Shown piece after piece: positions 7,289 through 13,691 of a DNA stretch of 13,691 bases. Origin of the DNA: a virus (lineage: Duplodnaviria; Heunggongvirae; Uroviricota; Caudoviricetes). Below the pieces are notes generated by a model. The model ran no database searches. It was not told where the DNA came from and saw only the letters and a program-made list of their open reading frames with translations. The translations under genes and the position numbers were made by a program. Location of the stretch: IMG/VR virus record IMGVR_UViG_2713896908_000003; one strand, written 5' to 3'. How positions within the stretch are numbered: position 1 is the first letter of the stretch; every line of letters begins with the position of its first letter.

Positions 7289-10969
<3,681 letters not shown>

Positions 10970-10995
<26 letters not shown>

Positions 10996-11515
10996 TCAGC
11001 AACCCCGGTATCAGTTCATCCAGCGCGGCTGCTTTGTTCATGGCTTTGATGATATCCCGTTTCAGGAAATCAACATGTCGGTTTTCCAGTTCCGGAAAAC
11101 GCCGCTGCACCGACAGGGGGATCCCGTCGAGAATACTGGCAATTTCACCTGCGATCCGCGACAGCACGAAAGTACAGAATGCGGTTTCCACCACTTCAGC
11201 GGAGTCTCTGGCATTTTTCAGCTCCTGTGCATCGGCCTGCGCACGCGTAAGTCGATGGCGTTCGTACTCAATAGTCCCTGGCAGGAGATCTGTCTCGCTG
11301 GCCTGCCGCAGTTCTTCAACCTCCCGGCGCAGCTTTTCGTTCTCAATTTCAGCATCCCTTTCGGCATACCATTTTATGACGGCGGCAGAGTCATAAAGCA
11401 CCTCATTACCCTTGCCACCGCCTCGCAGAACGGGCATTCCCTGTTCCTGCCAGTTCTGAATGGTACGGATACTCGCACCGAAAATGTCAGCCAGCTGCTT
11501 TTTGTTGACTTCCAT
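10970..11515 (-). CDS. Nu1: Terminase small subunit gpNu1 (winged-HTH DNA-binding N-terminus)
   Basis: 181 aa beginning MEVNKKQLADIFGASIRTIQNWQEQGMPVLRGGGKGNEVLYDSAAVIKWYAERDAEIENEKLRREVEELRQASE, matching lambda gpNu1; sits immediately downstream of the cos-like sequence. Confidence 0.95.
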
Positions 11516-11540
11516 TGTTCATTCCACGGACAAAAACAGA

Positions 11541-11555
11541 GAAAGGAAACGACAG
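11541..11555. repeat. cosB R-element-like repeat, perfect inverted partner of 11581-11595
   Basis: gaaaggaaacgacag; its reverse complement ctgtcgtttcctttc occurs at 11581-11595 (25-bp spacer). Corresponds to the gpNu1-binding R elements of lambda cosB. Confidence 0.75.
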
Positions 11556-11580
11556 AGGCCAAAAAGCCCGTTTTCAGCAC

Positions 11581-11595
11581 CTGTCGTTTCCTTTC
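11581..11595. repeat. cosB R-element-like repeat, inverted copy
   Basis: ctgtcgtttcctttc, the exact reverse complement of 11541-11555. Confidence 0.75.
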
Positions 11596-11640
11596 TTTTC
11601 AGGGGGGGTTTTAAATAAAAACATGACGTTACGGAGAAGA

Positions 11641-11652
11641 AGAACGGAAACG
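11641..11652. repeat. cosB R3-like element, third and degenerate copy nearest cosN
   Basis: agaacggaaacg shares the GGAAACG core with the 11541 repeat; separated from the others by an A/T-rich stretch (11609-11622) where lambda has the IHF site I1. Confidence 0.6.
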
Positions 11653-11692
11653 CCTTAAACCGGAAAATTTTCATAAATAGCGAAAATCCGCG

Positions 11693-11704
11693 CGCCTTCC
11701 GCCC
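11693..11704 (-). other. cosN: predicted 12-nt cohesive-end sequence (minus strand GGGCGGAAGGCG)
   Basis: The minus strand reads tacg GGGCGGAAGGCG CGCGGATTTTCGCTATTTATGAAAATTTTCCGGTTTAAGGCGTTTCCGTTCTTCT. This is collinear with the lambda left end (GGGCGGCGACCT CGCGGGTTTTCGCTATTTATG...) but the last 6 nt of the 12-mer differ. Confidence 0.65.
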
Positions 11705-11913
11705 CGTAGCCTGTCAGATCGCCGGAAAGAACCCACAAAAAATGAGAATAGTTATCATCTGCATGATGACTCATCAGAACGTGTGTGTACGCAATCTAAC
11801 CACAAGAAATGATCAATTATGACGCAGGCATTGCATCAATTGATCCACATCAAATTAACGTAAAAGCAACTTCAGAAAATACAAACCAGCAACACTGAAT
11901 ATGGGGCAACATT

Positions 11914-12051
11914 ATGTCATCAAAGAACAGAACCCGCAGAACAACAGCCCTCAACATCCGATTTCCAAACCAGATGATTGAACAAATTAACATCGCTTTT
12001 GGTCAGAAAGGTTCAGGAATTTTTTCAGCGTGGATTATTGAAGTCTGCTGA
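11914..12051 (+). CDS. Hypothetical 45-aa protein, ribbon-helix-helix (Arc/MetJ-like) DNA-binding fold predicted; possibly a YlcI/YnfO-type small prophage protein
   Basis: Hand-translated (below the ORF-track cutoff): MSSKNRTRRTTALNIRFPNQMIEQINIAFGQKGSGIFSAWIIEVC. The pattern is a basic N-terminus, a beta-strand LNIRFP, helix A, a G-x-G turn and helix B, comparable to the P22 Arc segment FNLRWPREVLDLVRKVAEENGRSVNSEIYQRVMESF. GGGG lies ~7 nt upstream of the ATG. Same locus position (lysis genes to Nu1 homolog) as small ORFs in E. coli cryptic lambdoid prophages. Confidence 0.45.
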   Translation: MSSKNRTRRTTALNIRFPNQMIEQINIAFGQKGSGIFSAWIIEVC

Positions 12052-12156
12052 AGAAGACTAATTAATGAAAAACATTCTCAATTTGTACCCAACAAAAACA
12101 AACACGACCAGAGCACCTGTTCAGACAGGTTTACTTAAACGACGTATATATGACAC

Positions 12157-12183
12157 AAAAAGCGACTACTAAAGTCGCTTTTT
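12157..12183. terminator. Bidirectional rho-independent terminator between the convergent small ORF and the PerC-like gene
   Basis: AAAA AGCGACT actaa AGTCGCT TTTT: a 7-bp perfect stem (up to 11 bp with the A/T flanks) with a 5-nt loop, an A-tract on one side and a T-tract on the other, so a hairpin plus U-run forms on transcripts from either strand. Confidence 0.6.
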
Positions 12184-12219
12184 ATTATGGTAACAGGCAA
12201 TAACTTTCTCAGATATTTT

Positions 12220-12534
12220 TTAGCATTTTTTTGACCGCGCGTTTCCGGACGTATTCTGTTCTCCTGTCCCTTTATATCGTCGGAATATCCGCCGCTCTTC
12301 AAATCCCATTCCCAACTCAGAATGTAGTCTGTTGACCGCTTGCTTTATTTCTGTCAGATTCACCGGTGCAACCGAAGTCCGGCGCGCCTTACGCAAACAC
12401 TCTGCTCGTTTCTGTGCCGCGATTTTTCTTTTCTGATCATCACTTAGCTGTACCATCACTTTTGCCCATCGTTCAGCCGCTCTCCGGTACAGTCCTTTTT
12501 TCTCCAGACATTCAGCCAGGTGATCATGTAGCAT
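12220..12534 (-). CDS. Small basic regulator, PerC/Pch-family-like (putative transcriptional activator); phage accessory (moron) gene
   Basis: 104 aa, MLHDHLAECLEKKGLYRRAAERWAKVMVQLSDDQKRKIAAQKRAECLRKARR.... The GLYRRAAERW...VM segment resembles the conserved core I recall for PerC of EPEC and the Pch proteins of EHEC lambdoid prophages. GGAGG lies 6 nt upstream of the ATG. Flanked by AT-rich DNA unlike the structural genes. Confidence 0.6.
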   Translation of the reverse strand: MLHDHLAECLEKKGLYRRAAERWAKVMVQLSDDQKRKIAAQKRAECLRKARRTSVAPVNLTEIKQAVNRLHSELGMGFEERRIFRRYKGTGEQNTSGNARSKKC

Positions 12535-12999
12535 AAGTGACCTCCAATTATCTACAGATTACCATTCTAAATTTACCTGCCCTTAATAAGGGAACAATAC
12601 TCCCCCCTCCACAGAAAGACAATAAAACAACAAACAAAAATATAAATAACAAACAGAAATAATCACGCTATTTATTGTTTTTTACTGAAAGAACTATTAC
12701 TGAACAAAAAACGCTGACTATATACTCAAGACCAAATAACTATTCTGCCAATCAAGTATCATAGCAACATAAGGAATTACCGTGTTTTGCCTTCTCAGCC
12801 CATACAATATGAACATATACTTAATACTCTATTGTAATATTTTCATTCATGCGACCCACGTCATTTACCTGTAAATAATATTCAAAATATTTATCACAGA
12901 AATCGTTTTTGGCCATGATCTGAGCACACTATAAAGTCCGGAACTGGCTTTTTGTTAAATCCCCCCTAACACAACCATCAACACCTTTATAACAAAACA
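12535..12999. other. ~465-bp strongly AT-rich untranslated region between the Rz stop and the PerC-like start (probable promoter/leader, candidate nucleoid-protein silencing region)
   Basis: No ORF of 60 aa or more on either strand; long A/T runs such as aacaaacaaaaatataaataacaaacagaaataatc; base composition contrasts sharply with the GC-rich late genes. Confidence 0.5.
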
Positions 13000-13467
13000 T
13001 CACGGTATACACTGGGTACGGATATATTCCTGTGCCCCTTCCAGTTGCTTTTGCATTGTCATCAGCCGTTCTCTGAGGGTGAAATAATCCCGCTCAGCGG
13101 TGTCTGCCAGTCGGGGGCTGGTTGCATTATCCACGCGGGTGGGGCCGGTGGCCTCACGCACGGCTGCGGAGCAACTGGCATTGACCCGCAGGCGCTTACG
13201 ACCAGCGGCAACATCAGCGCGCAGAGTTTCATTTTCAGCTTTCGCATTGGCTAATTCTCTCAAGTACTTTGCATCTAGCGCAGCAACATCACGCTGACGC
13301 TGCTGCATGTCAGCGATGGTGGCGATCGCCTGCTTCAGCTCACTGACTTTTTTATCACGCTGTTCTTTGTAGGCGATGGCATTATCACGGTAATGATTGA
13401 CCGCCAACGACAGGCAGACGATGATGCAGATAACCAGTGTGGAGATAATCGCGGTAACTCTGCTCAT
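13000..13467 (-). CDS. Rz: Inner-membrane spanin Rz (i-spanin)
   Basis: The ORF-track frame reads [43 protein letters not shown]...[34 protein letters not shown], collinear with lambda Rz (MSRVTAIIS...). An N-terminal transmembrane segment is followed by coiled-coil-like sequence. The start is set at the second ATG (13467), which forms an ATGA overlap with the endolysin stop and has GGGGG upstream; 13479 is an alternative. Confidence 0.88.
13062..13247 (-). CDS. Rz1: Outer-membrane lipoprotein spanin Rz1 (o-spanin), embedded in the +1 frame of Rz
   Basis: 61 aa, [61 protein letters not shown]: signal peptide with lipobox VSAC and a proline-rich mature part, collinear with lambda Rz1 (MLKLKMMLC...[29 protein letters not shown]); entirely inside Rz. 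Confidence 0.88.
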
Positions 13468-13691
13468 TGTTGCCCCCATAAACAGACTTCACGCTCAATC
13501 TCACGGCGAGTCATCAGTCCTTTCCATTGCTTACCGCCAGCGTATGTCCAGCGCCGTAGCTGATCACATGCGCCTTTGATATCGCCCTGGTTTATTTTGC
13601 GAAGAAGCGTCGATGTTCTGAAATTACCAGCACCCACGTTGTAAACGAACGAGTAAAGAGCGCCGCGCGTTGTTTCCGGTATATCGACTTT
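13464..13691 (-). CDS. R: Endolysin, C-terminal 75 codons (5' end beyond the window); phage lysozyme (T4/P21/RrrD-like muramidase) type, not the lambda R transglycosylase
   Basis: Hand translation of the minus strand from the window end: [75 protein letters not shown]. This resembles the C-terminal region of lysozyme-type endolysins of lambdoid prophages; the stop overlaps the Rz start. Confidence 0.8.

Follow-up and report, generated by a model that had tools for sequence, protein, structure and literature searches.

The regulators closest to the gene described here are PchA, PchB and PchC of EHEC O157:H7 Sakai, the group-1 members of the PerC family, each of which activates ler::lacZ at least 4-fold in K-12, an activity not seen with PchD and PchE (PMC5931665). 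LEE1 responds to Pch only when it is silenced by H-NS/StpA/Hha; Pch reduces H-NS occupancy, in vivo as well as in a reconstituted complex, and together with Ler co-activates other LEE promoters (PMC4764244). Without induction, expression of the pch genes depends on host regulators, LrhA among them (PMC13012123), and by RNA-seq an SOS- and prophage-inducing antibiotic raises group-1 pch, pchC about 8-fold (PMC5931665, PMC6265319). For expression of LEE type III secretion, EHEC, atypical EPEC and E. albertii depend on Pch as a switch borne on phages, and a pch copy marks its prophage as a virulence-regulating element. PerC (BfpW) of typical EPEC likewise activates LEE1, but EPEC can express LEE without it under many conditions, while EHEC cannot do without pch (PMC4764244). 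The remaining small prophage-encoded members of the family, PchD, PchE and K-12 YfdN (groups 2 and 3), differ in showing little or no ler activation, and PchE represses curli and flagella (PMC5931665, PMC6265319, PMC7369912). In position it resembles the lambda bor (and lom) morons, cargo of the Rz-cos interval with atypical composition and their own terminator.

The window, by which we mean the whole 13,691-nt stretch of DNA analysed, is the late region of a lambda-like prophage in reverse. All of its real genes lie on the minus strand: tail and head genes, portal, terminase A (9070..10995), Nu1, then cos, a cargo region of ~1.3 kb and Rz/Rz1, with the 3' part of the endolysin gene at the window end beyond Rz. 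The features of the cargo region and its borders are collected in Table 1.

Table 1. Features of the pch cargo slot and its flanks (positions in the window)
Feature	Position	Strand	Evidence
Nu1 small terminase, first gene past cos	10970..11515	minus	Pfam Phage_Nu1, E=3.3e-100
Putative cosN, GGGCGGAAGGCG, downstream edge of the cargo slot	11693..11704	minus	by-eye alignment to lambda-type cos of the EHEC loci
YlcI/YnfO (DUF3950) homologue, convergent, 45 aa	11914..12051	plus	Pfam DUF3950, E=1.6e-10; phrog_949
Symmetric hairpin, AAAAAGCGACT-ACTAA-AGTCGCTTTTT, with A-tract and T-tract flanks	12157..12183	both	folding, conservation
pch, 104-aa group-1 Pch (PerC-family) regulator	12220..12534 (stop included)	minus	ORF list, Pfam, identity to PchA
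Shine-Dalgarno, GGAGGT	12540..12545	minus	5 nt 5' of the pch ATG, read from the sequence
AT-rich (33% GC) Rz-pch spacer	12535..12999	minus	composition
Rz spanin gene, end of the lysis cassette, upstream of pch	13000..13479	minus	Pfam Phage_lysis, E=2.8e-49
Rz1, embedded in Rz	13062..13247	minus	ORF; relatives annotated as lysis protein or Rz1

The original prediction had placed a basic 104-aa protein in this slot and had assigned it to the PerC/Pch family from a motif. The ORF itself is real: a single ATG-initiated frame occupies exactly the interval given in the table, its Shine-Dalgarno is kept in the O157, O26 and E. albertii alleles, and its product (N-terminus MLHDHLAECLEKKGLYRRAAERWAKVMVQ, C-terminus SKKC, with the core GLYRRAAERWAKVM at residues 14-27) is basic, with 25 K+R against 12 D+E and a pI of 10.3. 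The family assignment was borne out by the profile and homology search that had been proposed for it. Pfam PerC (PF06069, score cut-off 22.6 bits) matched residues 1-89 on profile positions 1-89 of 90 at 144.4 bits (E=1.3e-42), far above chance, and phrog_994 matched at E=5.6e-44. Ten residues that are invariant in the PerC family (A7, L10, E11, R17, R18, A19, R22, W23, C46 and G75, taken from alignments of 79 and 40 relatives at about 28-50% identity) are all present, and the same invariants are found in EPEC PerC. The window protein is identical to PchA of O157:H7 Sakai (ECs_1091) at 99 of 104 positions (95%) and similar at 103, and is 96% identical to the O157 SS17 allele and 95% to the O26 allele. 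Four conservative substitutions (V38I, P54S, S56A, V83I) separate it from the O157 alleles, and the fifth difference from PchA is L6 in place of V6.

Sakai PchA/B/C share with it the length of 104 aa and the C-terminal tail, and by this near-identity, tail included, the window protein is a group-1 Pch; on sequence it clusters with group 1 and not with PchD, PchE or YfdN. The likeness to PerC of the EPEC pMAR7 perABC operon is lower (48% identity over residues 2-88). That protein is of 89 aa, lacks the 15-residue tail of the window protein and, unlike it, is borne on the pEAF/pMAR7 plasmid and co-transcribed with the AraC-type PerA. Public databases list the exact window protein on 485 contigs, under the name 'PerC family transcriptional regulator' (MULTISPECIES Escherichia), and it occurs in more than one Escherichia species. 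A scan of genome contigs with pch returned two species representatives only, E. albertii (89%) and Escherichia sp. (75%), and from the phage collection pch is essentially absent, apart from distant PerC-like proteins and one fragment of 1.5 kb. With the single Pch protein as query, the word-indexed homologue search got no further than close relatives.

Gene order in the window is R - Rz/Rz1 - pch - (ylcI/ynfO) - cos - Nu1 - A. That pch would lie on the strand of the late operon had been predicted, and Rz, Rz1, pch, cosN and Nu1 are indeed all on the minus strand. The prediction had also set the gene where lambda carries bor; this holds for the Rz-cos interval and fails for orientation, and the comparison is good for position only, because bor runs opposite to the late genes. 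The two differ in product as well, bor encoding an outer-membrane lipoprotein and the co-directional pch a regulator. Sakai pchA/B/C share the slot after Rz/Rz1 and the co-direction with Rz. The succession of Rz, pch, the convergent ylcI/ynfO-like ORF, cos and Nu1 is identical in O157 SS17, O26 11368 and the atypical-EPEC-like E. coli 377323_2f, the SS17 and O26 copies also having the same Shine-Dalgarno and hairpin, and it recurs in other Escherichia genomes, which are probably E. albertii, since some of their accessions fall in one series with those of E. albertii plasmids. All eight of the fetched loci that encode the exact protein keep the order up to the ylcI/ynfO-like (DUF3950) ORF, with Nu1 next in seven, and over 9.5 kb the window is 96-98% identical to several of these loci. 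Carriage by a lambda-like prophage directly after the lysis genes was thus found here, and Sakai Sp4 agrees with it for the Rz-pchA part.

Two of the related loci have been rearranged. In Sakai Sp4 (L016, 33366-36376) the segment from holin through endolysin and Rz to pchA lies next to IS629 and is turned around with respect to Q and the terminase genes; Sakai pchA is therefore no longer co-directional with its late operon, unlike the window copy. In one locus encoding the exact Pch protein (L012, 9977-16051) the region beyond cos instead holds a tail-fibre remnant, an IS and genes for T3SS effectors (NleG, a SopA/pentapeptide-type protein and Peptidase_M85). The DNA past cos having been replaced there, pch adjoins an exchangeable effector locus.

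The slot deviates in composition from the flanking late genes, as had been predicted: GC is 48% in the pch ORF, 33% in the 465-nt upstream spacer and 38% from the stop to cos, against 57% in the structural genes. The spacer presumably holds the promoter or regulatory region of pch and its leader. A simple promoter and terminator scan found no consensus sigma-70 promoter on the minus strand upstream of pch and no terminator-like site between Rz and pch; a looser -35/-10 scan of the upstream region was uninformative, because its best matches reach 8 of 12 only. Past the gene, starting 36 nt beyond the stop and lying between the convergent pch and ylcI/ynfO ORFs, is the perfectly symmetric hairpin listed in Table 1, a candidate intrinsic terminator for both directions. 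It folds at -17.4 kcal/mol on the minus strand (z -3.2) and -13.3 kcal/mol on the plus strand (z -2.2), and is conserved in O157 and O26. That the simple terminator scan passed it over is probably due to pairing of its A-tract with its T-tract. Measured against morons of the bor type, the slot, the deviant composition and a terminator hairpin are present, and the promoter scans were empty. An Rfam scan of 11400-13691 at permissive E-values gave chance-level matches only and no known sRNA.

We asked how far pch keeps company with LEE among 5426 complete E. coli genomes. The 315-nt ORF (megablast) is present in 673 of them, at a median of 3 copies, a ler/LEE1 probe (1149 nt, from Sakai) in 697, and a concatenated pch+ler probe in 699. 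By inclusion-exclusion 671 genomes have both, or 99.7% of the genomes with pch and 96% of those with LEE, all of these being raw counts, uncorrected for clonal over-sampling (many of the genomes are O157:H7). Among E. coli, pch hardly occurs outside LEE-positive genomes. The closest complete E. coli genome (377323_2f, CP039404), whose module is 98.8% identical and whose ORF is 100% identical, also carries ler, the number of probe places rising from two to three with the concatenated probe; read from such relatives, the host of the window was very probably LEE-positive. The original prediction had named the gene as a candidate phage-borne virulence regulator, a claim now supported by the near-identity to PchA, the synteny with EHEC prophages and the presence of ler in 671 of the 673 E. 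coli carriers. We put at roughly 85% the probability that the ORF is a functional group-1 pch allele that activates LEE, a cargo gene of a lambda-like prophage placed between its lysis cassette and cos.

Genes of the PerC family are frequent in Enterobacteriaceae that lack LEE (Salmonella, Klebsiella, Citrobacter and Enterobacter), and the family therefore has roles apart from LEE. Two other readings of the window gene draw on this. The protein might be a PerC paralogue with another job, acting as PchD, PchE or YfdN may on host traits (curli, flagella, metabolism) or on phage genes rather than on LEE; ler responds barely at all to PchD and PchE, and PchE is a repressor of csgD and flagella (PMC5931665, PMC6265319, PMC7369912). 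Against an identity of 95-96% to group-1 PchA/B/C across all 104 aa, the group-specific C-terminal tail included, a synteny that matches the group-1 genes, and the near-universal company of ler just described, we consider this quite unlikely. Or the primary role might be to serve the phage, with Pch countering H-NS silencing of AT-rich DNA of the phage or of a co-resident prophage during lytic growth and its use at LEE being a later co-option. The embedding of pch in the late operon, co-directional and with no upstream terminator found, would suit such a role, as would the spread of the family in prophages of LEE-negative hosts and the binding of Pch to many chromosomal sites outside LEE (PMC4764244). 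The group-1 clade is nonetheless nearly restricted to LEE-positive genomes, its genes are controlled in uninduced cells by host regulators such as LrhA (PMC13012123), and there is no known phage phenotype; a primarily phage-serving Pch is in our judgement very unlikely.

That the ORF only looks intact, its expression lost in a defective prophage, has to be weighed against how the locus has been conserved. Many EHEC prophages are defective (PMC5931665), the promoter scans were empty, and nonsense changes truncate both of the small ORFs that flank pch. In the YlcI/YnfO homologue, codon 46 is TGA where EHEC has AGA, leaving 45 aa instead of 74 (the EHEC-type frame would run to about 12140), and in the Rz-pch spacer a 31-codon ORF (12821-12916, minus) that matches phrog_2157 (E=7.6e-21; function unassigned, 46-position profile) ends at a TAA that is GAA in O157, where the frame continues; this ORF may be a genuine gene or else conserved regulatory DNA of pch. 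Since both neighbouring small ORFs are broken and pch is full length, the regulator has been kept intact while its neighbours decay. The pch CDS is 96% identical to the EHEC alleles, while identity between the Rz-pch spacer and its counterpart in front of Sakai pchA is 84.6%. By the method of Nei and Gojobori dN/dS is about 0.2, on small counts, for the window gene against O157 and O26, and about 0.13 against a divergent E. albertii paralogue, again on small counts and in a comparison that passes the earlier stop of that paralogue. These ratios indicate purifying selection on pch. With a full-length ORF, a strong Shine-Dalgarno, every invariant residue, conservative changes only, a CDS better conserved than its flanks, and the exact protein on 485 contigs from more than one Escherichia species, a silent remnant is scarcely credible. 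The 45-aa YlcI/YnfO form is itself widespread (527 contigs).

For a functional group-1 pch that activates LEE, the following course of events is proposed, its anti-silencing step and its SOS induction being carried over from the published work on PchA/B/C by near-identity. The small, basic, helical Pch would most likely bind the LEE1 promoter region silenced by H-NS, StpA and Hha in a LEE-positive Escherichia host and displace H-NS; ler would be switched on and would in turn activate the genes for type III secretion and attachment, along with phage-borne effectors. Within a lysogen, pch would be expressed from its own host-regulated promoter within the AT-rich spacer, and the hairpin 3' of the gene would end the transcripts from that promoter as well as antisense transcripts of the convergent ORF.

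In lambda-type phages, the Q-modified polymerase goes from the lysis genes across cos to Nu1 and A. Such a route in this prophage would mean that pch is transcribed and the hairpin read through; Q and pR' lie outside the window. Because pch is inside the late unit and points the same way, late transcription should have to read through it, so expression would be expected to rise upon prophage induction. This coupling, which the original prediction had suggested, fits the anatomy of the locus, with pch placed within the late transcription unit and a Rz-pch stretch in which no terminator-like site was found. The published rise of group-1 pch on SOS would follow from the same two properties, co-direction with the late genes and the lack of a terminator-like site after Rz. 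The location of pch within the late transcript would offer a simple structural reason for adhesion genes to rise with phage genes under prophage-inducing stress, some antibiotics included.

A group-1 pch gene is of an already known class in an already known location; the sequence has been annotated and the induction of such genes published. Possible novelty is limited to a resemblance at the level of the family, to the ANR proteins, and to minor details of this lineage (the variant cosN and the truncated neighbour ORFs). ANRs (AraC negative regulators, such as Aar of EAEC and Rnr of EPEC) are, like PerC, small three-helix proteins of enteric pathogens that modulate H-NS-family regulation, and five clusters of them have been published; unlike PerC, they are of 45-90 aa, act negatively by protein-protein contacts, and are without the PerC C-terminal half. 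An AlphaFold2 model of the window protein (79-sequence alignment; mean pLDDT 79, pTM 0.48) has confident helices at 5-13, 16-29 and 33-50 (pLDDT 89-95), a further helix at 60-73 and a disordered tail at 91-104. At E<=0.1 the NCBIfam ANR model NF033650 matches 74 of 79 PerC-family members in one register, the best at 2.1e-8, with PerC residues of about 6-50 aligned to profile positions 8-52. Against the curated cut-off of 32 bits for this model, Aar scores 65.7 bits and one PerC-family member, P0219, 33.9, above the cut-off; EPEC PerC scores 18.2, the window protein 14.0 (E=0.033) and Sakai PchA 13.6, so that the window protein stays below the cut-off. A gap-free alignment, made by eye with Aar, pairs the ANR signature residues from the literature (A, E, A, W ... 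R, C; PMC4983702) with PerC A7, E11, A19, W23, K/R42 and C46. Mutation of the Aar residues that correspond to A7, E11, A19 and W23 abolishes activity.

Profile-profile comparison (hhalign) of PerC with the Aar clade gave the same register at a non-significant E=0.68, where the Aar homologue search had yielded 5 sequences only; the comparison with Aar alone was also not significant, and Aar had no match to Pfam PerC. One PerC-family protein carries the NCBI name 'ANR family'. A kinship of PerC and ANR is thus plausible but unproven, and concerns the whole family, not this locus. The specific proposal, that the N-terminal 50 residues of Pch/PerC are an ANR-like, TPR-like three-helix module joined to a PerC-specific C-terminal half, we offer tentatively and think on balance doubtful. 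If true, PerC/Pch would share a single superfamily with the ANR 'anti-activators', made up of small modulators of H-NS-family nucleoprotein complexes with opposite outputs, and Pch might act partly by protein-protein contacts, beyond competing for DNA; the resemblance bears on how such small proteins act on H-NS complexes. H-NS was not recovered by co-precipitation with PchA (an unpublished observation cited in PMC4764244). No paper discussing PerC and ANR together was found in the literature searched.

Reviews describe the opening by DicF of an anti-SD structure in pchA mRNA (PMC7769764, PMC7873438). Folds of the pch leader hide either the AUG or the SD and differ between alleles, with z from -0.5 to -2, and the leader structure is no stronger than that of shuffles. 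A candidate anti-SD, CACCU at codons 5-6, was dropped, Sakai pchA itself having CACGU there, and unrestricted prediction of a DicF duplex on pch gave an over-extended pairing.

From Sakai-type pch loci the window also differs in its spacer (about 85% identical) with a different T-rich tract, in the truncated flanking ORFs and in a variant cosN. The T-rich low-complexity tract, at about 12575-12665 (minus), is the most variable part of the Rz-pch spacer; E. coli 377323_2f, otherwise near-identical, has in it an additional 19-nt copy (TTTATATTTTTGTTTGTTG-like). The presumed cosN of the window (11693-11704, minus) reads GGGCGGAAGGCG then CGCGGATTTTCGC, where the lambda type is GGGCGGCGACCT then CGCGGGTTTTCGC. 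The variant is common to all loci with the pch allele of the window (L001, L005-L012), while the O157 and O26 loci retain the lambda-type cosN, though their Nu1 and A are close homologues.
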